DNA of 64,000 bases from an uncultured Bacilli bacterium (GTDB lineage Bacteria; Bacillota_I; Bacilli_A; RF39; UBA660): the NCBI GenBank assembly GCA_910579455.1, contig CAJTUT010000005.1, positions 1,593 to 65,592 on the forward strand, read 5' to 3'. Position 1 is the stretch's first letter, and each line of letters begins with the position of its first letter. The position numbers and the translations under genes were made by a program. The notes beneath the pieces were generated by a model, which was not told the DNA's origin, ran no database searches, and saw nothing but the letters and a program-made list of their open reading frames with translations. Positions 15,510-55,669 of this stretch are shown in pieces.

Positions 15510-17021
15510 CTATTTTTCTATTCTTTGAAACAAGGGAGAAGGATTACCTAACTGATACTCATTATCGAAGATAAATTGAAAATCCACCTTATTATTATTT
15601 ATTTGCTTTAGTATTTTTTTGCTAGTAGTTGGCAAAAAAGATTGTAATAAAATTGCACAAATTCGAATTGATTCCAATAAATTATAAATTACTGTTTCCA
15701 ACCTTTGTTTTTGAGTCTCCTCCTTAGCTAAAATCCATGGTGTTGTCTCATCAATATATTTATTTGCTTTTCTTAACACTTCAAAAATAGATTCTAAAGC
15801 TTCACTAATGTGCAATTGATTCATCTTATTTTCTACCTCATCATATAAATCATTAATTGAGTTCAAAAAGGTCTCATCCACAGTATCTATAACGTTCTTA
15901 TTAGTAATAATTCCAGAAAAATATTTATTTCCCATTGAAATCGTTCTTTGTACTAAATTTCCTAAATTGTTTGCTAAATCGGAATTAATTCTTGCGACTA
16001 AAGAGTCCTCAGAAAAGGAGCCATCATTTCCAAAGGGAACTTCCCTTAATACAAAGTACCTAATCGCATCTAATCCATATTTATCAATATATTCCCTGGG
16101 ATCCCTATAGTTTCCCAAAGATTTTGAGATTTTTTCGCCATTTACAACTAACCATCCATGACCAAAAACCTGTTTTGGTAGAGGAAGATTCAATGCCATC
16201 AACATAATTGGCCATACAATGGTATGAAATCTCACAATTTCTTTTCCAACTAAATGCAAATCAGCAGGCCAATATTTCCTAAATTCACTATCATCGTTAC
16301 CCAAGTATCCTAAGGAAGTAATATAATTAGTCAAAGCATCCAACCAGACATAAACCACGTGCTTTTTATCAAATGGAACCTGAATACCCCAAGTAAAAGA
16401 CGTTCTTGATACACATAAGTCTTCTAAACCTGGTTTAATAAAATTATTAATCATTTCATTCTTTCTAGATTCTGGCTGAATAAACTCTGGATGAGATTCA
16501 ATATACTCAACGAGCTGATCCTGGTATTTTGAAAGTTTTAAAAAATAAGCCTCCTCAGTTACTTCATGAACCTCCCGTCCACAATCGGGACAATTTCCAT
16601 CCACAACCTGAGTTTCCGTCCAAAAAGATTCACAAGGTGTACAGTAAAGACCTCGATATTCCCCCTTGTAAATATCCCCCTTTTCATATAGTTGAACAAA
16701 AATTTTTTGTACAGCTTGCTCATGAATAGCATCTGTTGTTCTAATAAACTTATCATATGAAATATCTAAATAATCCCATAAATCCTTAGAATTTTTAACA
16801 ATATGATCAACATATTCTTTTGGACTTATTCCTGATTCTTTTGCTTTATTTTCTATTTTTTGTCCGTGTTCATCTGTACCTGTTTGAAAACAAACATCGT
16901 AACCCTGTTGTCTTTTAAATCTTGCAATAGCATCTGCAATGATAGTAGTATAACAATGACCAATATGAAAATTAGCACTTGGATAATATATCGGTGTAGT
17001 AATATAAAATTTTTTATTCAT
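15510..17021 (-). CDS. metG: Methionine--tRNA ligase (short form, no C-terminal EMAP domain)
   Basis: 503 aa; HIGH motif (ANFHIGHCYT); zinc knuckle CPDCG; KMSKS variant KISKSLGN. Confidence 0.95.
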   Translation of the reverse strand: MNKKFYITTPIYYPSANFHIGHCYTTIIADAIARFKRQQGYDVCFQTGTDEHGQKIENKAKESGISPKEYVDHIVKNSKDLWDYLDISYDKFIRTTDAIHEQAVQKIFVQLYEKGDIYKGEYRGLYCTPCESFWTETQVVDGNCPDCGREVHEVTEEAYFLKLSKYQDQLVEYIESHPEFIQPESRKNEMINNFIKPGLEDLCVSRTSFTWGIQVPFDKKHVVYVWLDALTNYITSLGYLGNDDSEFRKYWPADLHLVGKEIVRFHTIVWPIMLMALNLPLPKQVFGHGWLVVNGEKISKSLGNYRDPREYIDKYGLDAIRYFVLREVPFGNDGSFSEDSLVARINSDLANNLGNLVQRTISMGNKYFSGIITNKNVIDTVDETFLNSINDLYDEVENKMNQLHISEALESIFEVLRKANKYIDETTPWILAKEETQKQRLETVIYNLLESIRICAILLQSFLPTTSKKILKQINNNKVDFQFIFDNEYQLGNPSPLFQRIEK

Positions 17022-17286
17022 TTTAATTCCTCCTAAAATAAAAATATTATAAATATAAGGACGAAAATATTTTCCGTGGTACCACCTTACTTTATAATAT
17101 TCTATTATACACTTAAATAGTTAACGCCTATCTACGATTATATTTACTTATCAATATAATAGTTCAAAAGCCATATTTTATAATTTTTTATACCTGTTCC
17201 CACCACACACAAGCTCTCTTCATAAAAATATTATAAAACTCTTTCTCATAACTTTTAAATATGGAAGTATTATATCACACTTTTTC

Positions 17287-29315: not shown

Positions 29316-29481
29316 ATATTTCACTCCAAAATAAAGATGCACATGAGAGTTAATTGTTAAAGCTGCTATCTTCCGATCCTGACTTATTTCCAATGCACTC
29401 ATTGCATCAACAATATAATACTATAAATTGTTCGTTAATTACAAGAATTTATTAAAATTTATTGAAATTTTATGATTTTTA

Positions 29482-37076: not shown

Positions 37077-38468
37077 TTAATTCACAACAGCATCACCAAT
37101 ATCTTTTTTTAATTTATCAATAATTTTTGCTAAATCTGGATTGATTTTGATCTCTTGGGCAATTTTTTCAACAGAGTGCATCACTGTAGAATGATCCTTA
37201 CCTCCAAACTCAGTACCTATTTTTGGAAAAGATTCACTAGTCATATTTCTACATAAGTACATAGCAATTTGTCTAGGAAAAGAGATATTAGAGCTCCTTT
37301 TTTTGCTCCGAATATCTTCTACTGTAATTTGAAAATATTCAGAAACAATTTTTTGAATTCTGTGAACCTCATTTTTTTCAGATATACCTTTACTTATAAA
37401 ATCTTTTAAGGCTTCTATAGCAAGATCTAGAGTAATTTCTACTCCTCCCATAATAGTGGAATATGCAATAAGTCTTGTAATAGATCCTTCTAGTTGTCTT
37501 ACATCAGTTCCTATATTAGAAGCAATATATTCTATGACGTCCTCAGGAATTTCTTTTTCAAAATTTCCTGAGGATATTTTCTTTTTAATGATTTCAGTTC
37601 GTAAAGAAAATTCTGGAGGAAATATATTGACGGTTAAACCCCAACAAAATCTAGTTCTTAGACGATCCTCTAATAATTTTAAATCATCAGGAGAACGATC
37701 TGAGGAAATAATAATTTGTTTACTATCATTATATAATGTATTAAAGGTGTGAAAAAATTCTTGTTGTGTTTGAGTAGCACCCCCTAAGAATTGGATATCA
37801 TCAATAATTAGTACATCAACATTTCTATACTTATTTTTAAAAAAGTCTACATAATTGAAATTAGTTCCTTTTTCATCTCTTTTATTAATTCCAACAAAAT
37901 CTTGTATGAATTGATCACTAGTAACATAAAGAACTTTTCTATTACTATTTTTGATAATATAATTACCAATTGCGTGCATTAAATGGGTTTTTCCTAATCC
38001 ACTATTACCATATATAAATAAAGGATTATACATATTACCAGGGTTTTCAGCAACAGATAAAGCAGCTGCATGAGCAAACTTATTACTATTTCCAACAATA
38101 AATGTTTCAAAAGAATACTTGCTTTTTAAATTAGATTGAAAAGGATTTGGAGGAACACCCTTATTTATAATAGGTTGTTCTGTAGATATATTTTGATCTT
38201 GGGTTTCCCTTGCTAGTTCTAATTCTGACTCTAAAATAAAATCTAATTCAAAATTAGTTCCTGTAATATCATTTAAGTTTTCAATAATTAAGTTAGAATA
38301 TTTGTCTGCTAAGTGTTTTTTGTGAATTTGCATGGGAACGATAATAAAAGCTTTACCATCTTCTAGTTTGTGGAGTCTGGTATCATGAAACCAAGTATCG
38401 AAAGCTAGACTAGTCAGATCCTCCTTGATTTGTGATAAAAACTTTTGCCACAAAATATCCACATTCAT
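37077..38468 (-). CDS. dnaA: Chromosomal replication initiator DnaA
   Basis: Start at MNVDILWQKF (GGGGAGA RBS); AAA+ Walker A GNSGLGKTHL, Walker B LIIDDIQF; C-terminal DnaA-box binding helix (HSTVMHS). Confidence 0.95.
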   Translation of the reverse strand: MNVDILWQKFLSQIKEDLTSLAFDTWFHDTRLHKLEDGKAFIIVPMQIHKKHLADKYSNLIIENLNDITGTNFELDFILESELELARETQDQNISTEQPIINKGVPPNPFQSNLKSKYSFETFIVGNSNKFAHAAALSVAENPGNMYNPLFIYGNSGLGKTHLMHAIGNYIIKNSNRKVLYVTSDQFIQDFVGINKRDEKGTNFNYVDFFKNKYRNVDVLIIDDIQFLGGATQTQQEFFHTFNTLYNDSKQIIISSDRSPDDLKLLEDRLRTRFCWGLTVNIFPPEFSLRTEIIKKKISSGNFEKEIPEDVIEYIASNIGTDVRQLEGSITRLIAYSTIMGGVEITLDLAIEALKDFISKGISEKNEVHRIQKIVSEYFQITVEDIRSKKRSSNISFPRQIAMYLCRNMTSESFPKIGTEFGGKDHSTVMHSVEKIAQEIKINPDLAKIIDKLKKDIGDAVVN

Positions 38469-42160: not shown

Positions 42161-42199
42161 TTTCTTTATATGATATCTTAACAATTGAGGAGAAAAAAG

Positions 42200-43153
42200 A
42201 TGAAAAAAGAAATATTAGATTTTTATTTAAAAACAAGTGTTTATACAAATTATTATCCATTTGAAGAATATTATAAATCCCTACCAGATGATATGGGAAC
42301 TCTTACTAATTTGCTTCATCATCAAGTAATTCATAGAAGTGAATTAATTAGAAGTTATCTAAACAGCCCTAGTAAGTATGATAGTGAGATTGAACTAAAG
42401 AAAATAAAAGAAGAGTTTCCTTGGTATAGGAATCGATGTGACGATGATATTTTATTAACTGCTCCAGCGATCACAGCAGAATTATTTCGTCAAGATCCTA
42501 GGGGATTTGTAATAGGTAGAGAGATTAAAGATAAAGTAGTAATTACCTGTAGATATGTCTCAGTCCTACTTACATCTATTTTAAAAGCTAAGGGTATTCC
42601 AGCAAGATGTAGAAGTGGATATGCTGACTATTTTTTAAAAAAAAGGGATCATATTTATTATGATCATTGGATAGTTCAATATTATAATGGATATGAAAAA
42701 AGATGGGTAAATGTCGATAGTGATAATGACTATAAGACAGATTTTGATCAATGTGATATTCCAAATAATGAGTTTAAGTGGATTGCCCAAGTTTGGTTAG
42801 ACGTAAGGGAGGGAAAAGATAATCATGAAAATTATATTCATGGAAGGCATCTGAATGGATTAGATCATTTAGCCTATGCCCTATTTTTTGACTTTCATGC
42901 TCTGATGAATGATGAAATATCTTACTTATTTTTTCCAACAATGATTGATGAAAAAAAAGAATTTTTTAATTTATCAGAAGAGAATTTACAAAAACTTGAT
43001 GAGTTAGCAAGACTCATGTTAGATCCAGATAAAAATTTTGATGAATTAAGATATTTATTTAGAAATGATAAATGGTTAAGAGTTATTAATACACCACTTT
43101 TAGGGGATGAAGATCATTTAGAATTAGAGGAAGCTGACAAATTTAAAGGATGA
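42200..43153 (+). CDS. Transglutaminase-like superfamily cysteine protease
   Basis: 317 aa from ATG (GAGGAG RBS); putative Cys-His-Asp triad in ITCRYVSVLL / YYDHWIVQYY / NVDSDND. Confidence 0.7.
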   Translation: MKKEILDFYLKTSVYTNYYPFEEYYKSLPDDMGTLTNLLHHQVIHRSELIRSYLNSPSKYDSEIELKKIKEEFPWYRNRCDDDILLTAPAITAELFRQDPRGFVIGREIKDKVVITCRYVSVLLTSILKAKGIPARCRSGYADYFLKKRDHIYYDHWIVQYYNGYEKRWVNVDSDNDYKTDFDQCDIPNNEFKWIAQVWLDVREGKDNHENYIHGRHLNGLDHLAYALFFDFHALMNDEISYLFFPTMIDEKKEFFNLSEENLQKLDELARLMLDPDKNFDELRYLFRNDKWLRVINTPLLGDEDHLELEEADKFKG

Positions 43154-43206
43154 AATGTCAGTTTTTCTAACTTTAAATATGATGGTTTAAGTTTGGGGGA
43201 TAATGT

Positions 43207-45057
43207 ATGCAACAAACTTCTGAAGTTTATTTAACAGAAAAATATGTATCAAAAGAAAAGTGGGAAAAGTTAATCAAAGTTATAGCAAAATATAATGGAA
43301 CACTAAAATCTTTTCAAATAATCGTAGAGCTTTCTAATCAAAAAATAAAATATTATTTAAAAACAAAATGTAATCTTCCACCTTCTATAAATAATTTATC
43401 TTCCTTTTTAATCAAACCGGTTAGGAAAAAAAATAATTCTAGAATTCAACAATCAATTCCATTTTTTATATCTGCCAATAGCAATTTTTTTCATATTTTA
43501 GAGACATTAGAAGTAAAACAAAAAGGAAGGGTTTCTTATATTGAGATCCATTTTAGAAAATTATATCAAGATTGTATTAAAACAAGAACTTATTTATATT
43601 TAGAAAAAAATCATCAAGTAACAAGGCATAGAGTTTTTTGTTGTATACCTACTAGTATCCTATCTTTAGATTTTTCAAAAAATACAAGATATCTTTATCA
43701 ATCAGCACCAAAATATTTAGATATTAGTAAGATTATGCATCTTTTAAGTAGTGATTCTACTTCTTCCATTTTAAATGTAGATACTTTTCCTTATTTACAA
43801 GGAAAATTTTATTTAAATCAAAATCATTATAATTTTGATAAACATTCGATTATTATAGGTTCTAGTGGCTGTGGAAAGTCAAAATTTATTAGTTTATTCA
43901 TCAATAATATAAGAAAAAATAGAAAAACCTATCAAAAATATAAAGTTGTTCTAATAGATCCCCATGCATCCTTAGAAAAGGATATTGGGGGAATCGGAAA
44001 AGTAATTGATTTTCAGGCATCAGAAGATAGTATTGATTTATTTCAAGATAAAAGTGAAGATGTAGTATCTCAAGCAGAACTATTATTGGAACTGTTTCAA
44101 TCTTTAATTTGTGATCAATATAATTCAAAATTAGAAAGACTATTAAGACATAGTATCCATCTTCTTTTAATTGGAAATTGTTTTAATTTTACTAACTTAA
44201 GAAAAATTATTTTAGATAGTGAATATAGAATAGAAATTTTAAATCAGTCAAAAAACAAAATTCCATTTAGTATTACTTCTTTTTTCTTAGCAGATTTTAA
44301 TGATTTAAAAACAAAATCTTATGGAGAAGCAATATCCCCATTGATTGCTTTTTTAGATGAAATGGAAATGATTCCAGTTTTTAATAATCAAAACAATTCT
44401 CATCACCTAAAAAAAGTAATTGATGATAATTTTTTAACTTTATTTTCCTTAGATAGAACTAAACTAGGTGATAAAGTAACCAAAACAATTTCAGGATTGA
44501 TCATGCAACAGCTACTTCTGTTAGCTCAAAGCTATCAAATAGATTCTCATGTCATCTTTATCATTGATGAAATTTCAACTGTAGAAAATCCAATACTTCC
44601 TAGATTTTTATCAGAAGCTAGAAAATATAACCTATCTTTAGTTTTAGCAGGACAGTACTTTAATCAAATCTCAAATAGCTTAAAAGATGCTATATTTTCC
44701 AATGTTTGTAATTATTATATATTTAGAACTTCAAAGATGGATGCTAGGGTATTAGTAGACAACTTTAATATGAAAATACCATTAGAAGATAATGATGATA
44801 AAAAAATGAAATTATTAACCGATCTAAAAGCAAGAGAATGTGTGGTAAGAATAGATGCCAATGGAACACTGCTTCCAGCATTTAAAGCAAGAACTCTAGA
44901 TTTTAAAAGTATCCCTAGAATCACTAGGAATAAAGAAAATGTATTAGAAAAGTCACAACAAAAAGAATTAAAAGATTTTAAATTTAATTTAGGTCAAGTT
45001 GATTTAAAGAGTATTTTAATATCAAATTCTTCTAGTAGAAAGGAGATAAAAAAATGA
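43207..45057 (+). CDS. HerA/FtsK/VirB4-superfamily P-loop NTPase (DUF87-like) with a 200-aa N-terminal domain
   Basis: 616 aa; Walker A IIGSSGCGKSKF, Walker B HVIFIIDEIS, then ARKYNLSLVLAGQ (the RKyG..Q sensor typical of the HerA/VirB4 clade); GGGGGA RBS. Confidence 0.7.
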   Translation: MQQTSEVYLTEKYVSKEKWEKLIKVIAKYNGTLKSFQIIVELSNQKIKYYLKTKCNLPPSINNLSSFLIKPVRKKNNSRIQQSIPFFISANSNFFHILETLEVKQKGRVSYIEIHFRKLYQDCIKTRTYLYLEKNHQVTRHRVFCCIPTSILSLDFSKNTRYLYQSAPKYLDISKIMHLLSSDSTSSILNVDTFPYLQGKFYLNQNHYNFDKHSIIIGSSGCGKSKFISLFINNIRKNRKTYQKYKVVLIDPHASLEKDIGGIGKVIDFQASEDSIDLFQDKSEDVVSQAELLLELFQSLICDQYNSKLERLLRHSIHLLLIGNCFNFTNLRKIILDSEYRIEILNQSKNKIPFSITSFFLADFNDLKTKSYGEAISPLIAFLDEMEMIPVFNNQNNSHHLKKVIDDNFLTLFSLDRTKLGDKVTKTISGLIMQQLLLLAQSYQIDSHVIFIIDEISTVENPILPRFLSEARKYNLSLVLAGQYFNQISNSLKDAIFSNVCNYYIFRTSKMDARVLVDNFNMKIPLEDNDDKKMKLLTDLKARECVVRIDANGTLLPAFKARTLDFKSIPRITRNKENVLEKSQQKELKDFKFNLGQVDLKSILISNSSSRKEIKK

Positions 45058-45752
45058 GTGATGAAAAAACATTAGAAATAGTAAATAAGATTTTTAAAAA
45101 TGTATTTGGAAGGGAAAATCATAATTCGTTAGATGAAATATTAGAAAAATTTGCCTTTGATATCAAACTACCAAAAAAAGTAAGAGACTCTGTTACCAAT
45201 GAAATTACTTGGGCAGACTCTATCAATAGTGGAAAATATATCACTTTAGAAAATATGCAAGCGAAAGATCAAAAAGATGGTTGGATGGTAGAAAAAAGAG
45301 AAGTAAATAATTTAGAAGATTTAGTTAGAATCTGGAATAGTATTAATTTAACGACAACAGAAAGAGTTTATGATTCAGAAAATGTTGCTAAAAGTGATAC
45401 CATTTATGGATGTGAAAATGTTTATAGATCAACCGATTGCAGGGGTTCTAAAAATATGATTTTTTGTGACTCCTGCGGATCAAGCGAATTTCTATTAGCA
45501 TCTCAAAGAAGTGGATCTTCAAGTTTTTGTATTAGAACAGATGATTCTAAAGATTGTAGTAATAGTTATAATGTAGTCTGTTCTAACAAAATTATGAATT
45601 CGTTCTTTATTCAAGATTGTTTTGATTTATATGAATGTATCTTTTGTTCTCATATAGCAAGTAAAAAATATTGCATTGCCAATATGCAGTTTGAGGAAGA
45701 AGAATATTTTTTAATCAAAAATTCTATTATAGATTGGATTTTAAATTCTTAA
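45054..45752 (+). CDS. Cysteine-rich hypothetical protein, translationally coupled to the ATPase
   Basis: 232 aa; ATGA start/stop overlap with the upstream gene; C-terminal 110 aa carries 12 Cys at a roughly 9-residue periodicity (C120, 129, 138, 141, 159, 168, 176, 189, 195, 198, 207). Confidence 0.6.
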   Translation: MSDEKTLEIVNKIFKNVFGRENHNSLDEILEKFAFDIKLPKKVRDSVTNEITWADSINSGKYITLENMQAKDQKDGWMVEKREVNNLEDLVRIWNSINLTTTERVYDSENVAKSDTIYGCENVYRSTDCRGSKNMIFCDSCGSSEFLLASQRSGSSSFCIRTDDSKDCSNSYNVVCSNKIMNSFFIQDCFDLYECIFCSHIASKKYCIANMQFEEEEYFLIKNSIIDWILNS

Positions 45753-47200: not shown

Positions 47201-47863
47201 ATGAAAATAGCGGTTATTGAACGTATCGAAATGGATTTAGAAAGAGATCCATTTAACAGGAGACTTTTTTTAAGTAGTCATTTTCAAGATCTATTTGAAA
47301 AATTAAATATTTTGTGGATTCCAATTGTGTCAGACAAGTTTTCCAAGGAGATATGTGCAATGTGTGATGGTTTATTAGTAACTGGAAGTGCAAATGATGT
47401 TCATCCTAAATATTATAATGAACAGGTATTAAAAGGGAAAGAATACATCCATGATGAATTTCCAATAGTAAAAAAGGCTGTTGAAGTTTTTTCTAAAAAT
47501 AATAAGCCAATACTAGGTATTTGTGCAGGAATACAAGAAATAAATGTAGTATATGGTGGAACATTAAATCAACATATTGGGAATCATGATTTAAAAGAAG
47601 GGGAATATCATAAAATAGAAATTAAAAAAGACTCACTATTATATGACATATATAAAAAAGAAGGTATAGAGGTAAATTCCTATCATAAGCAATCGATTAA
47701 AAAGGTAGCACCTGGATTTAAAGTAGGAGCAATTAGTAGTGATGGAGTAATAGAAGAAATAGAAAAAGAAAATGTCATAGCAGTCCAGTGGCATCCAGAA
47801 GTAGTATATGATATGAAATTATTTGAGAAATTTATCAATATGTGTAAAGAAAGTAGTGATTAG
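47201..47863 (+). CDS. Class I glutamine amidotransferase-like / peptidase C26 (gamma-glutamyl hydrolase family)
   Basis: 220 aa; nucleophile motif ILGICAGIQE; His/Glu in VQWHPE; inserted between mnmE and mnmG. Confidence 0.7.
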   Translation: MKIAVIERIEMDLERDPFNRRLFLSSHFQDLFEKLNILWIPIVSDKFSKEICAMCDGLLVTGSANDVHPKYYNEQVLKGKEYIHDEFPIVKKAVEVFSKNNKPILGICAGIQEINVVYGGTLNQHIGNHDLKEGEYHKIEIKKDSLLYDIYKKEGIEVNSYHKQSIKKVAPGFKVGAISSDGVIEEIEKENVIAVQWHPEVVYDMKLFEKFINMCKESSD

Positions 47864-50379: not shown

Positions 50380-50551
50380 GATAAATATTTAATATTATAG
50401 TGATATAGAAATTAGAGATTATCCATAGAAGTCAATAAAGAATAGATCAATTATAAGAAAAAGATAAATGGTATTCATCATTATATGTATCAAGAAACAA
50501 ATTATTTATTAGTTACAAAAGGAATATTACTAAAAGTATCGTAGATTAGAG

Positions 50552-53500
50552 GTGATATTTATAGAAAATTTAGAACAATTATTAAAAAAAGAGATTAAAA
50601 AGTATCCTGTATTACCTGATGAAGAACAAATGTTGTTAGCAAAACAATATAAAAAAAGTGGAGACAAAAAATCTTTTGAAAAATTATTTCATCATAATTT
50701 AAGATTATGTTTAAAAGTATCCTACAAATATAGCGGTAAATTAGAAAGTATGACTTTTCTAGATTTATTTCAAGAATGTAGTATCATTTTAATGAATGCT
50801 ATTAAACATTATAATCCAACTGGGGAAGCAAAGTTTTCAACATATGCAATGTCTGCATTAGAAAAAACGATAAAAAACAGAATATTTGAATTAGATAAAA
50901 CCATACGAACACCAGTATATAAAGAAGAACAAAAAACAAAATATTACCAGTTTATAACCGAATATAATCAACAGTACCATAAAAATCCAACTAAAAAAGA
51001 AATAAAGGAAAAACTAGGGCTTAATGATGATCAGTTAAAAAATTTAGAAATGAATATAGGACAAAAATCCATATCATTAGATCAAAAAATTTCATCTGAG
51101 GAAGATTCCGTTGAGTTAATAGAATTGATACCAAATAAGAATAATGATTATAAAGATATAGAATCAAGTTATGATATGAATATCTTAAAAAATAAATGTG
51201 TACAGATTCTAACTAAAGAAGAGTATTATATTATTTATTATAGGTATATATCAGAAGAAAGAAAAACATTAGATCAAATAGGAAAAGAATTTAATCTAAC
51301 CATAGAAAGCATTAGGCAAGTAGAAAAAAAGGCTTTAGAAAAGTTAAAACGAAGAATAAAATCTAAAAAAGTAAATGATAAGTATAATAAAAACTTAGAT
51401 CCACTTTCTATAGATACGACTATTCTTTTAAACGAATTAAAAAAATATTTATCAAATGAAGAATATTTTATTTTATATTCTACTATAGTACAAGAAATGA
51501 GTACTGACATCAGTACCGAAGATCATGTGCATGATCTTCAAATATTAGATTTAGATAAAGAAAAATTATTAGATATCAAAAAATATTTACTAGAGGTTTT
51601 TAATCATTATAAAAAAGAAAAAAATCTTGAATGTTTAAGGGATAATTATCATAAAAACTATACAGTTGCACAGATTATGGAGCTAAATATAAATATAAGT
51701 TCAAGAGATTTGATGGATTTTCATTTACTAGAACAGTATTTCCGAACAGTGAGTATAGAGGAGATTAAGAATACTAAATATTATGAAAATCTTTCTTTAA
51801 AAAATCAGAAGTTAATACAAAAATACTATGATTATAATGATCGATATTTGAGAAAAAGTGAGATAAAGCAAATAGAACAGGAGTTAACATTAGAAAAATT
51901 TGGATATTTAGAAACAGAAAAAACTTTATATGATAGAAAAGAATTACAAAAAATATATCTAAAAAATAGAGAAATTTTAACACAAAAAGAGCAAGAAATT
52001 CTAGGAGTAATTTTATTTAGAAATAATCAATCCTATAGTCTAAAAGAATCTACCAGACAAAAATATATAAATAGATTAATAAAAATAGAATTTAAAATCA
52101 AGGATTTTTATCAAAATAAAATAACAAAAAAACAAATAGAACAAATTTTAGAATATCATCCAAATTTGCTATCACAAGATGAGAAAGAACTAATATGTAA
52201 AAGTTATGGAGTTAATCAAGATAAAATCAGTTTGAAAGAGTTAGCAAAAGAGTATTCTGTCTCTTATGAGGAATTACACGATAAAGTATTTACTTTAAAA
52301 AATAGAATATTATGTAAATATTATCAAATTACAGAAGGAAAAAAAGATGAGTTACCAGAAGATGAGAAAAAACTTTACCAGATGTATCTCTCAAACGTAC
52401 AGTATGAATTTTCTGTGGATACTAGAAGAATTTTAGGAATGTTTCTATCTGGAAAGAATTATCAAGAGATTGCTACTATAGAAAAGATATCTATAACTAA
52501 AGTATCAAATTTTATCACAGAAGGACTTCGAAAATGTGAATTTTATAAATATGGAATTATAGTACCTTTTCTCATACAAGAAGAGGAAATAGATATAGTC
52601 TTGCAACTACATCAATATAGTGAAATAAAAAAGAAACTAATAAAAGAGAGATACTTAAAGTTAAAAATGTTAACTGAGTTATCAAATGAATATCATATAA
52701 ATAAACAAGATATAAGCAAGCTAAAGGAAAAATTTTATGATCAATATTTAAAATGGAAATGTCCACAAATTTCAATCAATCAGTATGAAGAAGAAATAAA
52801 AAGGCATCAGGCAGATTCAGTATTAACAGAAGAAGAAAAAAGCATGGTAGCATTTAAATATGGAATTAAGTGCGAATATAATCCAATGGGAAAAAAAGAA
52901 AAGAATCAAGAAATTGCTGATCATTTTTCTATTTCATTAAACTGTTGTAAGGCAAAAATAAACTCTTTCAATAGAAAAATGAGAGAAAGAATATTAAGAT
53001 TAACTATGCCCAAATATGGAATTATTAGAAGAGATGAAATGAGAAAAATCCTAAACAATAATCCTTTATTGATAAGTGAAAAGGAAAGGGATATTATTTG
53101 TCATACAAATGAATTAAATGGTTATTGTTATTTGAGTGAAACCGAGTTAAAAGAAAAATATCAAGAGAGATCTAATAACTTCAAACGAAGATATGATAGA
53201 GCGGTACTTTCAATAAAAAAATATCAAGATAATCTCCTTCCAAGGAAAATTGACTATCAAAAAGATATAAAAAATATAGAACGATATTTTAGTAAATATG
53301 ATAGAAAACTATTAGAAATGATTTATAACCAAAGATTAACAGAAAAACAAATAGCTGAAAAATTAGAAATCACTGATTTTCAAAGTAGACAAAAAATAAT
53401 TAAAATTAAACTTGATGTTGCAGAAATTTTAAACGATGAACCCCAAGCAAAAATGTTTGATTTTGATTATGCACGTAAAGTAATAGATCAAGAAGACTTA

Positions 53501-54091
53501 CCACTATACTATATAAATAATAATTTAGCTAAAACAATTTATCAAATGATAACAGGAGAGAATGGACAAAAAAAGTATACATCTAAAGATGTTGTTAAAG
53601 AATTAAATTTGATTGTTCCACAAAAGGCTCTTGATAATTGCTGTTATAGTGTAATGATTGCTATTGAAAAATATAAAAGAGGAATTAGGAAAGTCAAAAC
53701 CGTTACTACTGAAGAAATAATAGATTATTACCAACATAGCAAAGAAAAAATACCAGTAGAAATAAAAAGCTATATAGAAAAGAAAGTTTTCAATAATCCC
53801 TTAGCAAATCAAAAAACTCTCCCAAATAAATTAATATATGAAATATTAAAATATCGAGGAGAATTTTCTATTGATATTAATCAAATAAATCATACTACAG
53901 CAAGAGAATTAGTAAGAAATAAAAAATTAACTAGTTCTTGCAGAAAAAAAATTAAAGGTTATTTTCAAATTCCAGAAAGAGAAATAATGAATGGAAAAGA
54001 AAAATTAAAAGTATTAAAGTTATTATCTCCTTTATATAAAAAGAGGGAATATCAAGATGAATTTAAATGCTTGAAGAAATCTAAAGATTAA
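50552..54091 (+). CDS. Giant sigma-70-family protein: complete sigma core (regions 2-4) fused to a roughly 900-aa array of tandem region-4-like HTH modules
   Basis: 1179 aa from GTG. N-terminus is collinear with SigA regions 2.1-2.4 (NLRLCLKVSYKY, FLDLFQECSIILMNAIKHYNP, FSTYAMSALEKTIKNRI, IRTPVY) and region 4 (LDQIGKEFNLTIESIRQVEKKALEKLKRR); about nine further sigma4-like repeats follow. Confidence 0.75.
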   Translation: MIFIENLEQLLKKEIKKYPVLPDEEQMLLAKQYKKSGDKKSFEKLFHHNLRLCLKVSYKYSGKLESMTFLDLFQECSIILMNAIKHYNPTGEAKFSTYAMSALEKTIKNRIFELDKTIRTPVYKEEQKTKYYQFITEYNQQYHKNPTKKEIKEKLGLNDDQLKNLEMNIGQKSISLDQKISSEEDSVELIELIPNKNNDYKDIESSYDMNILKNKCVQILTKEEYYIIYYRYISEERKTLDQIGKEFNLTIESIRQVEKKALEKLKRRIKSKKVNDKYNKNLDPLSIDTTILLNELKKYLSNEEYFILYSTIVQEMSTDISTEDHVHDLQILDLDKEKLLDIKKYLLEVFNHYKKEKNLECLRDNYHKNYTVAQIMELNINISSRDLMDFHLLEQYFRTVSIEEIKNTKYYENLSLKNQKLIQKYYDYNDRYLRKSEIKQIEQELTLEKFGYLETEKTLYDRKELQKIYLKNREILTQKEQEILGVILFRNNQSYSLKESTRQKYINRLIKIEFKIKDFYQNKITKKQIEQILEYHPNLLSQDEKELICKSYGVNQDKISLKELAKEYSVSYEELHDKVFTLKNRILCKYYQITEGKKDELPEDEKKLYQMYLSNVQYEFSVDTRRILGMFLSGKNYQEIATIEKISITKVSNFITEGLRKCEFYKYGIIVPFLIQEEEIDIVLQLHQYSEIKKKLIKERYLKLKMLTELSNEYHINKQDISKLKEKFYDQYLKWKCPQISINQYEEEIKRHQADSVLTEEEKSMVAFKYGIKCEYNPMGKKEKNQEIADHFSISLNCCKAKINSFNRKMRERILRLTMPKYGIIRRDEMRKILNNNPLLISEKERDIICHTNELNGYCYLSETELKEKYQERSNNFKRRYDRAVLSIKKYQDNLLPRKIDYQKDIKNIERYFSKYDRKLLEMIYNQRLTEKQIAEKLEITDFQSRQKIIKIKLDVAEILNDEPQAKMFDFDYARKVIDQEDLPLYYINNNLAKTIYQMITGENGQKKYTSKDVVKELNLIVPQKALDNCCYSVMIAIEKYKRGIRKVKTVTTEEIIDYYQHSKEKIPVEIKSYIEKKVFNNPLANQKTLPNKLIYEILKYRGEFSIDINQINHTTARELVRNKKLTSSCRKKIKGYFQIPEREIMNGKEKLKVLKLLSPLYKKREYQDEFKCLKKSKD

Positions 54092-54120
54092 GATAATTCC
54101 AAAAAACTTAATCTTTTTTT
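54084..54120 (+). terminator. Rho-independent terminator of the giant sigma gene
   Basis: 9-bp stem AAGATTAAG(54084-54092)/CTTAATCTT(54107-54115) with a 14-nt loop, followed by a T7 run; the stop codon lies inside the stem. Confidence 0.55.
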
Positions 54121-54196
54121 ATGATATTATTGAAAAAATGAGATTTAATGATATAATATAAAATAGAATAAAAGAATAAAAAGAGAGGTATGGGTT

Positions 54197-55669
54197 ATGC
54201 AAGGCGAAGAGGTAGTATATCTATACTTGGATGATATTATTCCTAACAGATTTCAACCGAGAGAAGTTTTTGAGGAAAAACCATTAAAAGAGTTAGCTGT
54301 TTCAATCAAGGAACATGGAGTAATACAACCAATTATAGTAAGAAAAGTAAACGATAAATATGAAATCATTGCTGGAGAGAGAAGATACAAGGCCTCAGCT
54401 TTAGCAGGACTTACCAAAATACCAGCAATTATTAGAGAATTAGATGATAAAGAGTCATCTAAAGTGGCATTGTTAGAAAATTTGCAAAGAAAAAATTTAA
54501 ACCCTATAGAAGAAGCAAAAACCTATCAAAAAATACTAGAAATAGATGAAATGACCCAAGAGGAATTAGCAAAAACTATGGGGAAAAGTCAATCATCAGT
54601 CGCCAATAAATTAAGGCTATTATCCTTGTCTGATGAAATACAACAAGCTTTATTACAAGATAAAATATCAGAGCGTCATGCAAGGACCCTTTTAAATGTG
54701 AAAGATCCAAGGGAACAACAGGAATTATTAAACGAAATTATTAATACTAAAATGACAGTAAGACAATTAGAGAGCAAAATAAAAAAAGATCAACCATCAA
54801 GCGAGAGTATCATTCAGGATACAACAGTATCTAGTCATTCTTTAGAAAATATGAATATAAAAGACTCAAAGCCTATTTTAAAACAGGATAATTATATTTC
54901 TAGCAATCCGTTAATACCTAGCTTTTTAACAGGAGAAGCCGAACAAAAAGAAGAGCCTCTTTTAATTAGTGCAACTGGAGAAAATTTAATGGATAAAAGA
55001 GAAGAACCAGAATTATTAATTAATGAAGAAAATACAGAGAAAGAAAATGAAATATCTCCTCAAAAATTTATCAACTTTGGAGAGATAGATGATACAGAAG
55101 ATGAAGATCTTATACAGGTAAACGATGGAATGCTACTTGGAAGTATTACATCTAAAGAAGATTCTTCCATCAATGTTAATGACCTTAATGCTAATATCCA
55201 AAATGTCTCACCTTCTCAAAAAGGAGCCTCTAATGCTGATTTGGATAGTTTATTAAGAATTAATACAGATCCAATCCTATCTAATGCTAATAATAATTCC
55301 AGTTCAGAAGAAAATAATAATTTCAAATTTTTCTCACCAGTACAGGAAGCATTAAAAGAAAGTGAAAAGGAAGAGACCAAAACATCTGAAGATTATTTCA
55401 AGGCACCTGATCTTATTAATGTAGATATTCCAGGAGAGATAGCAACCTCTCCCACAAATAATGTTAGTTTAAGTCAGGTGACTTATGATTCTATAAACGA
55501 AAATAAACCCATTCAGTCGATTGATTTTAATACTAATCGTTCTTTACAAAGTTCCATAGAAATGATAAGAGATGTCATTAAAAAAATAGAATCGAATGGA
55601 TTAAAGGTAGATTCAGATGAAATGAATTTGGAAAATTCGTACCAAGTAATTATTAAAATAGAAAAGTAA
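54197..55669 (+). CDS. noc: Noc-like ParB-family protein with a 300-aa low-complexity C-terminal extension
   Basis: 490 aa; ParB box IPNRFQPRE ... GERRYKAS ... LLENLQR, HTH ELAKTMGKSQSSVANKLRLL, ISERHARTLL (Noc-like); no N-terminal amphipathic helix; C-terminus rich in Ser/Asn/Glu/Asp. Confidence 0.7.
   Translation: MQGEEVVYLYLDDIIPNRFQPREVFEEKPLKELAVSIKEHGVIQPIIVRKVNDKYEIIAGERRYKASALAGLTKIPAIIRELDDKESSKVALLENLQRKNLNPIEEAKTYQKILEIDEMTQEELAKTMGKSQSSVANKLRLLSLSDEIQQALLQDKISERHARTLLNVKDPREQQELLNEIINTKMTVRQLESKIKKDQPSSESIIQDTTVSSHSLENMNIKDSKPILKQDNYISSNPLIPSFLTGEAEQKEEPLLISATGENLMDKREEPELLINEENTEKENEISPQKFINFGEIDDTEDEDLIQVNDGMLLGSITSKEDSSINVNDLNANIQNVSPSQKGASNADLDSLLRINTDPILSNANNNSSSEENNNFKFFSPVQEALKESEKEETKTSEDYFKAPDLINVDIPGEIATSPTNNVSLSQVTYDSINENKPIQSIDFNTNRSLQSSIEMIRDVIKKIESNGLKVDSDEMNLENSYQVIIKIEK

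Follow-up and report, generated by a model that had tools for sequence, protein, structure and literature searches.

A sigma-70-family protein with a C-terminal array of sigma-4-like units in a lineage-restricted family of uncultured Bacilli

The window analysed here is a 64,000-nucleotide stretch from an uncultured Bacilli bacterium (GenBank assembly GCA_910579455.1, contig CAJTUT010000005.1, positions 1,593 to 65,592). It encodes a 1179-amino-acid (aa) protein that we describe, with high confidence in the architecture as read from sequence, as a member of the sigma-70 family whose hitherto undescribed poly-sigma-4 extension defines a lineage-restricted family. Sigma factors belong to the most thoroughly studied proteins of bacteria. 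Their textbook architecture ends at region 4, and the known extensions are short regulatory domains on extracytoplasmic function (ECF) sigma factors. In this protein the -35-reading domain appears multiplied about tenfold in one chain, which raises the question of what use such a chain would be to RNA polymerase (RNAP). Full-text literature searches turned up no account of a sigma factor with more than one region-4 domain. NCBI holds an identical protein, MCI8346391.1, which is named only 'sigma-70 family RNA polymerase sigma factor', and no solved structure is like the array. The first-pass annotation of the window, made from the letters and their open reading frames (ORFs), had also taken the architecture to be undescribed.

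50552..54091, + strand: whole gene for the sigma-70-family protein with C-terminal poly-sigma-4 array (1179 aa, GTG start, from the ORF list)

The coordinates, strand, start codon and length agree exactly with that annotation, as does the absence of a transmembrane segment (maximum Kyte-Doolittle hydropathy 1.17 in a 19-aa window). The protein is basic, with an isoelectric point of 9.06 and a net charge of +28 in the tail.

The N-terminal residues match a complete sigma-70 core

Profile matches and alignments indicate that residues 6-276 are a complete sigma-70 core with regions 1.2, 2, 3 and 4, divided as follows.

50567..50659, + strand: region 1.2-like N-terminal helices (residues ~6-36), from alignment to SigA region 1.2 in the PDB
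50663..50899, + strand: sigma-2 domain (residues 38-116), with core-binding region 2.2 and the -10 recognition and melting regions 2.3-2.4
50915..51151, + strand: sigma-3 domain and region 3.2 linker (residues 122-200), from Pfam Sigma70_r3 and the SigA alignment
51158..51379, + strand: genuine sigma-4 domain (residues 203-276), with helices at 209-219, 222-234, 240-246 and 251-271

Sigma70_r2 (residues 45-111; 33.1 bits against a cut-off of 24), Sigma70_r3 (residues 129-196; 26.7 against 25.3) and Sigma70_r4 (PF04545, residues 219-266; 62.5 against 24.1) all exceeded their Pfam cut-offs, as expected from the complete core that had been proposed at the N-terminus. Sigma70_r1_2 was above its cut-off in the relatives P0009, P0022 and P0075. 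Residues 7-276 aligned end to end with SigA of C. difficile (7l7b_F, E 2.5e-32) and of B. subtilis (7ckq_F, E 6.4e-29), and these alignments reproduced the SigA motif correspondences proposed earlier.

Among 75 family sequences, the region 2.2 motif D-L-I-Q-E-G (D-x-x-Q-E-G) was kept in 60-69, the equivalents of T429/Y430 (-11A pocket) in 62-64 and the T-R-E-R-x-R-Q of region 4.2 in 38-58 (family consensus T-R-E-R-I-R-Q). The recognition helix of the genuine sigma-4 carried a family-mean net charge of +3.7. The tryptophan dyad (W-dyad) of region 2.3, a mark of primary sigmas, is mostly lost: it was kept in 8 (W433) and 36 (W434) of the sequences, with S101 and A102 in its place in the window protein, where I251 and S253 also stand at the positions of the two -35-contacting Arg of region 4.2. 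As judged from this alignment, the functional sigma residues are under purifying selection family-wide, and we take the protein for a functional alternative sigma descended from groups 1/2, with somewhat greater divergence in the clade of the window.

Family profiles resolve repeated four-helix units in the tail

By profile comparison, the tail consists of sigma-4-like units, each of four helices, arranged in tandem. Across residues 281-1179 the repeat period is ~75 aa (65-89), with the same four-helix pattern as the genuine sigma-4, whose helices are ~10, 11, 8 and 19 residues long in the AlphaFold2 secondary structure. Self-BLAST of the single sequence was noisy and uninformative for this K/E-rich protein, and the repeats were clear only with family profiles. 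A 9-sequence profile tied sigma-4 to residues 535-586 and weakly to three further places. When the 75-sequence alignment was compared with itself in windows, profile against profile, off-diagonal matches appeared by the dozen (scores 40-57, probabilities 85-96%), and off-diagonal hhalign scores reached 40-62. Units U1-U12 were then bounded by AlphaFold2 helices and compared all-vs-all with hhalign. Null scores peaked at 18.8 for column-shuffled queries and at 25.4 for reversed sequences, and sigma-2, used as a control, scored at most 18 against every unit, unrelated as expected. In the following list, plain scores and percentages are from hhalign, bits are Pfam Sigma70_r4 scores of the unit consensus and charges are those of the recognition helix (helix 4), as family means for U5-U8.

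51392..51616, + strand: U1 (residues 281-355), the unit nearest the genuine sigma-4; 62 to sigma-4, 98%, E 1.8e-13; charge 0
51617..51847, + strand: U2 (residues 356-432), short helices, repeat status undecided; best internal score 28
51848..52114, + strand: U3 (residues 433-521), degenerate four-helix unit; 34 to U4 and 33 to U6, 92-93%
52115..52345, + strand: U4 (residues 522-598), sigma-4-like; 38 to sigma-4 (95%), 44-55 to U5-U9; 21.9 bits
52346..52567, + strand: U5 (residues 599-672), sigma-4/ECF/LuxR-like; 40 to sigma-4; 33.7 bits; family-mean charge +2.0
52568..52768, + strand: U6 (residues 673-739), sigma-4-like; 32 to sigma-4; 31.7 bits; charge +2.6
52769..53017, + strand: U7 (residues 740-822), sigma-4-like with an insertion between helices 2 and 3; 31 to sigma-4, 53-55 to U4/U8; 29.9 bits; charge +3.9
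53018..53242, + strand: U8 (residues 823-897), best-conserved unit (mean column conservation 0.51); 35 to sigma-4; 30.5 bits; charge +4.2
53243..53449, + strand: U9 (residues 898-966), sigma-4-like; 35 to sigma-4, 55 to U5; 27.3 bits
53450..53695, + strand: U10 (residues 967-1048), four-helix unit linked via repeats; 38, 42 and 45 to U4, U5 and U8 (95-96%), just 21 to sigma-4
53696..53881, + strand: U11 (residues 1049-1110), three-helix segment; internal scores up to 24, inside the range of the nulls
53882..54088, + strand: U12 (residues 1111-1179), terminal unit; 41 to U8 and 35 to U4, 94-96%

Direct matches to sigma-4 were obtained for seven units (U1 and U4-U9), and three more (U3, U10 and U12) were linked via other repeats. 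The remaining two (U2 and U11) are undecided, the score of U2 being just over the null maximum. The 'about nine' repeats of the first-pass annotation are thus real and far above chance, with the corrections that their period is ~75 aa rather than ~50 and that the unit is a four-helix fold rather than a helix-turn-helix (HTH) alone.

The majority-rule family sequence of each unit was taken as its consensus and scanned against Pfam (Sigma70_r4 cut-off 24.1 bits). Sigma70_r4 was the top match, above cut-off, for the five consensuses U5-U9, as had been anticipated for the repeats. The U4 consensus matched the YlxM/UPF0122 HTH above cut-off (31.2 bits) and that of U10 a Tc3-type HTH below it (20.9 bits); the HTH matches of U1 were all sub-threshold, and U2 and U3 had no Pfam match. 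In the native protein, Sigma70_r4_2 was detected at residues 623-662 (26.4 bits against a cut-off of 25.7), and several relatives carry two or three separate r4 stretches. LuxR/GerE (PF00196) reached 18.5 bits at residues 625-661 against a cut-off of 23.5, and P0003 was the only scanned protein above this cut-off (25.5 bits). Scans of the unit consensuses showed that Sigma70_r4 fits the tail units better than GerE. No curated family in Pfam, NCBIfam, PADLOC or PHROGs covers the tail.

As in sigma-4, the units show a charge dipole, with neutral or acidic helices 1-2 and a basic recognition helix. Polar or basic residues are conserved in the recognition helices of U5 and U8 and resemble those of ECF and LuxR HTHs: the helix of U5 is polar and conserved (v-S-N-I-I-T..g-i-r-k), and that of U8 is ECF-like and basic (s-i-k-R-r-y-q-R-A-i-l). 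U12 ends in a long, very basic helix (residues 1148-1178), with a net charge of +12 in the window protein.

The array is predicted to be rigid

An AlphaFold2 model built with 75 homologs had a mean predicted local distance difference test score (pLDDT) of 87.5 and a predicted template modelling score (pTM) of 0.61. A first run with 9 sequences was poor (pLDDT 65) and was used only for helix boundaries. Most of residues 520-1100 in the final model exceeded a pLDDT of 90, linkers included, and the array is therefore predicted to be rigid and not beads on a string. This suggests an assembly with fixed geometry. No PDB structure resembled the multi-unit array, no TALE, mTERF or HEAT-type solenoid was matched, and the tail sequence profile gave no match in the PDB.

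The architecture recurs across a family of gut and rumen Bacilli

A search with the tail alone returned eight relatives at 31-65% identity, six of them full-length (~1170 aa) and the other two shorter, probably through truncation. A profile was built from seven tail sequences, with the window protein among them, so that its own family membership is true by construction. A search of 1.84 billion representatives with this profile retrieved 198 clusters (50% identity), of which 136 had E <1e-30. In almost every case the length falls within 1160-1230 aa, and the whole ~890-position tail is collinear after an N-terminus of ~300 aa; the relatives are thus also giant, a point on which the earlier annotation had asked for a check. 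A strong sigma core is present in 104 of the 107 members of at least 1100 aa. The 75 aligned members share 19-59% identity with the unit order preserved, which argues for long purifying selection. All 17 loci from GTDB species representatives belong to metagenome-assembled genomes (MAGs) of uncultured Bacilli or 'Tenericutes' from mouse, rabbit, rumen and similar samples, and the family as a whole is restricted to uncultured Bacilli of gut and rumen, whose genomes are small and AT-rich.

These data bear on the concern that the gene is an artefact, namely a mis-assembly that fuses genes, as also raised in the first-pass annotation, a run-on fusion of HTH genes or an unexpressed ORF. Every sequence does come from metagenome assemblies, and a few MAG copies are split. 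However, the 1160-1230-aa collinear form recurs in independent mouse, rabbit, rumen and other assemblies, the unit order is kept at the low identities given above and the identical protein is present on 5 contigs. We therefore rule out mis-assembly or gene fusion, and consider an artefact of any kind very improbable.

Two MAGs hold two copies each, as would be expected of an alternative sigma. In three MAGs (L011 6303..10838, L018 6781..10442 and L022 4555..8260), frameshifts or assembly errors break the gene into two or three ORFs; L011 and L022 belong to a two-copy MAG. This hints that some copies are decaying. The two-copy MAGs and the split copies together argue against essentiality.

A few members have the array without the full sigma core. 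P0068, P0070 and P0090 (971-997 aa) start directly at sigma-4 (hhalign 42-66), P0042 consists of sigma-2 and the tail, and P0024-26 are without sigma-3. The array paralogs with either sigma-4 or sigma-2 ahead of the array lie at the following positions.

L023, 4001..6928: array paralog without full sigma core
L025, 4001..7081: array paralog without full sigma core
L027, 410..3403: array paralog without full sigma core

No sigma-2/3 remnant was found in any frame near the array-only paralogs, and their upstream genes are unrelated. The existence of paralogs without sigma-2/3 therefore points to the array as an autonomous module. Directly 3' of the array-only gene for P0090, a 451-aa protein (L027 3463..4821) begins with sigma-4-like units and matches positions 212-292 of the core hidden Markov model (HMM) with E 2.7e-10, which suggests a wider set of sigma-4-repeat proteins in genomes carrying array-only genes. 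Another ORF of 451 aa, at L023 9080..10435, has no Pfam match.

Longer versions of 1397-1505 aa occur in a sub-clade represented by L011, L012, L013 and L019. Their extra ~250-300 aa match no Pfam family; Pfam detected no extra sensor or enzyme domain in these ~1400-1500-aa variants, and the generic unit HMM does not account for the added length. A gene of 138-139 aa is conserved directly upstream in the same four loci, which also have several other neighbours in common.

The protein is distinct from the named sigma classes

The core is collinear with the group 1-3 sigmas (SigA/RpoD, RpoS, RpoH, SigB/F/G) through regions 1.2, 2, 3 and 4, and its closest sequence and structure matches are SigA/RpoS/RpoH chains. 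The group 1-3 sigmas all stop no more than ~10 residues past region 4.2, whereas the 1179-aa protein runs on for 900 aa. The top NCBIfam models, RpoD, RpoS and RpoH, scored 110-133 bits against cut-offs of 323-572 (RpoD NF006666 132.6 against 572; RpoS 121.8 against 378.7), with SigBFG at 81.6 against 234 and TIGR02393 at 128 against 354. With scores so far under the cut-offs, the protein is no ortholog of a named sigma. A housekeeping SigA/RpoD was ruled out by these equivalog scores, the absence of region 1.1 (the window protein begins at region 1.2), the missing W-dyad and the existing paralogs. No other sigma is encoded within the 64-kb window or the examined loci.

The best NCBIfam matches were to group 1-3 sigmas rather than to ECF sigmas, which have sigma-2 and sigma-4 only, whereas the 1179-aa protein also has Sigma70_r3 above cut-off. 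The sigma family also includes MzaA of the MZA anti-phage system, another protein of unusual size. Its sigma part matched residues 32-276 (NCBIfam 103.8 bits, cut-off 800; PADLOC 63.2 bits). However, the extra mass of MzaA is N-terminal and its sigma part C-terminal, the reverse of the order here. An MZA defence sigma was rejected on the low NCBIfam score, the confinement of the match to the sigma part and the lack of MZA partner genes and of a defence-island context. A phage origin was also rejected, with no meaningful PHROGs match for the tail and no relative in IMG/VR viral contigs.

Single-domain sigma-4-like HTH proteins and LuxR/GerE effector domains (YlxM/UPF0122, KorA/TrfB, FocB and the C-terminal domains of DesR/DevR) usually act as dimers. 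Each has one such domain, compared with about eleven in the present chain, where the linkers are short and ordered. Myb R1R2R3, the paired domain, the AraC double HTH, TALE and the mTERF solenoids share the concept that tandem helical modules could read an extended site.

A candidate DNA-binding arm upstream of the -35 element

In the reading that we prefer, with a probability of about 40%, the protein is an alternative sigma with the array as a built-in multivalent DNA-binding arm reaching upstream of the -35 element; here we infer RNAP binding, DNA binding and the geometry. Established holoenzyme structures place the C-terminal end of sigma-4 at the upstream border of the -35 element, from where a rigid chain would run out along the DNA further upstream. 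The alternative sigma, with its regions 1.2, 2, 3 and 4, would thus continue past sigma-4 into a rod or superhelix of ~ten sigma-4-like HTH domains. Sigma-2 and sigma-4 would read the -10 and -35 elements, and the basic recognition helices of the array would contact the DNA upstream, the strongest candidates for such contacts being U5-U8 and the very basic C-terminal helix. The role of the array may be like that of the contact between the C-terminal domain of the RNAP alpha subunit and the UP element, or that of an activator hard-wired into the sigma factor. It would lengthen the recognised site and tether RNAP to a small set of extended promoters. This reading is favoured by the complete core, by the conserved functional residues, which support RNAP binding, by the sigma-4 homology of the units, by the basic tail and the basic recognition helices of U5-U8, by the conserved helix residues of U5 and U8, by a model that is confident through the linkers and by the MAGs with two copies.

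Several observations weigh against an upstream arm. U1, the unit nearest to sigma-4, has an uncharged recognition helix. Helix-4 conservation is mainly hydrophobic in most units, the net charge of whole units is near zero, and no more than 2-4 units resemble specific DNA readers. Divergence of the core is greater in the window's clade, where the W-dyad is gone and I251 and S253 replace the -35-contacting Arg. Paralogs without sigma-2/3 show the array working outside a sigma factor. Finally, no periodic DNA array as a possible target, and no tandem repeats of note, were found in the window.

Some of these features would fit better with the array as a regulatory or decoy extension that folds back on the core or binds partner proteins. 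The C-terminal extensions of ECF41, ECF42 and ECF238 control sigma activity and take over the anti-sigma role; they are 120-200 aa long and have unrelated folds (PMC8999054). The protein here likewise has an extension fused after sigma-4, and no conserved anti-sigma gene was found beside it. No neighbour, anti-sigma-like or other, is conserved across 15 distant loci, so that regulation may apply in cis, and a conserved operon partner such as an anti-sigma was rejected on the same loci, in which only one sub-clade shares a gene, the 139-aa upstream gene. In a decoy array, binding to the beta-flap tip, to anti-sigma factors or to activators would be contested between the pseudo-sigma-4 domains and the real sigma-4. 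U1 would suit this role, as a near-copy of sigma-4 with a neutral recognition helix that has kept its protein contacts and lost its DNA contacts; the conserved helix-4 positions are hydrophobic rather than polar in most units, and a pTM of 0.61 implies a compact, defined overall structure. That extensions with an anti-sigma role are established in ECF groups (PMC8999054) also speaks for this explanation. Against it, 900 aa of duplicated sigma-4 domains, ~ten in number, far exceed the known extensions, a pure decoy leaves unexplained why U5-U8 have basic recognition helices and the terminal helix a charge of +12, the array-only paralogs have no sigma-2/3 to regulate, and no sensor or ligand-binding domain was found in any scanned variant. 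A regulatory or decoy array, proposed by analogy with the ECF groups, is the main rival of the upstream arm, and we consider it somewhat unlikely. The lack of a conserved anti-sigma partner nearby fits the upstream-arm reading as well, in which the protein would be a self-contained regulator.

The position of the gene bears on a further explanation. The window is the low-GC (~27%) origin region of a Bacilli chromosome, with a GC-skew switch near 38000. The genes gyrA-gyrB-recF-dnaN-dnaA lie on the minus strand and are followed by rnpA, yidC, jag and an AraC/GyrI-like gene, then by three unknown genes, mnmE, a peptidase C26/class-I glutamine amidotransferase gene, mnmG and rsmG. The 1179-aa gene comes next, ahead of a noc-like ParB gene, parA and parB, so that the order noted previously for this replication origin (oriC) region stands. 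The slot between rsmG and noc is common to the closest relative, L004, and in L003 the gene lies between jag and mnmE, still adjoining oriC. No origin gene was present within the stored flanks (up to 8 kb per side) of the 15 more distant loci. The oriC/par position is kept only in close relatives, and we therefore regard it as clade-specific and attach no functional importance to it. A functional link to oriC/par was rejected, and the meaning that the first-pass annotation had attached to the location is not supported. The three roles suggested in that annotation stand as hypotheses, and the data speak neither for nor against the one in sporulation.

Such a location would nevertheless be in keeping with a largely RNAP-independent, multivalent HTH transcription factor or a nucleoid or chromosome organiser, whose core would be vestigial or a tether to RNAP and which, in the window's clade, may act at the origin/par region that encodes it. 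Proteins with sigma-4 and the array or sigma-2 and the array occur naturally without a complete core, a sigma-4-array protein of 451 aa adjoins one core-less paralog, the window's clade has lost the W-dyad and the two -35-contacting Arg, the gene lies close to oriC in L003 and L004 as in the window, and the protein is basic overall. However, a strong core with conserved functional residues in nearly all full-length members is unexpected for a vestigial domain, the location is not kept in the distant loci and a search for repeated DNA near the gene gave no array. We consider this explanation doubtful, and less probable than a regulatory or decoy array.

The upstream-arm reading can be taken further, to a new sigma class in which the rigid chain of ~ten HTHs would read or wrap ~100 bp upstream of the -35 element and the sigma-less paralogs would repress or compete at the same sites. 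This fuller version is unlikely, standing between the two alternatives above in probability.

Gene boundaries and neighbouring features

At window positions 50545..50565, the annotated GTG start is contained in a strong Shine-Dalgarno (SD)-like string, AGAGGTGAT. Because the GTG itself sits within this string, a start downstream of it is possible, and an in-frame ATA 5 nt past AGAGGTGAT could serve as a non-canonical start three codons downstream. Homologs start at ATG behind normal SDs, and the real start may be a few codons 3' of the annotated GTG. Of the poor-SD GTG start reported earlier, the GTG is present, but the SD-like string overlaps it. Two features follow the coding sequence.

54083..54120, + strand: AT-rich terminator-like hairpin followed by a T run, overlapping the stop codon (RNA fold -6.8 kcal/mol, z -2.0)
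54130..54157, + strand: promoter-like site TTGAAA, 16 nt, TG-TATAAT, ahead of the noc-like gene

The hairpin has 10 bp with U7 directly after. It had been called a clean terminator; the hairpin and U7 are there, but it is only modest, AT-rich and uncalled by a consensus scanner. The promoter-like site, which had the top score of the promoter scan (11/12 matches plus extended TG), separates the noc-like gene from the 1179-aa gene.

Other features of the window are listed below.

54197..55669, + strand: noc-like ParB gene (490 aa), with ParB_N and HTH_ParB at residues 5-197
47201..47863, + strand: peptidase C26/class-I glutamine amidotransferase gene, between mnmE and mnmG
42185..45752, + strand: three-gene insert between jag/AraC-like and mnmE
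17054..17258, - strand: T-box leader (102 bits), upstream of a 503-aa ORF at 15510..17021
29321..29418, - strand: small signal recognition particle RNA (53 bits)

The remaining ~290 aa of the noc-like ParB are low-complexity and S/N/E/D-rich, an extension that B. subtilis Noc does not have; L004 has a 488-aa equivalent. The C26/amidotransferase insertion, which is outside the classical Bacillus gene order, is kept in L003 and L004. The three-gene insert encodes proteins of 322 aa (no matches), 616 aa (a HerA-like ATPase) and 232 aa (no matches), and is absent at the equivalent place in L003. The ATPase matched PADLOC mad8 (2e-14), HerA (2e-9) and phrog_5156 (5e-19), and the insert may be a defence or HerA-type module placed in the oriC region. 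The T-box leader and the small RNA are ordinary features.

Implications

If the array reads DNA, the family would represent a new form of promoter specification and a natural poly-HTH scaffold, similar in concept to zinc-finger and TALE arrays. If the chain does read upstream DNA, the HTH array would be modular and might be engineered. A decoy array would instead amount to sigma autoregulation of a new kind. The family itself points to lineage-specific transcription biology in organisms that are known from metagenomes only.

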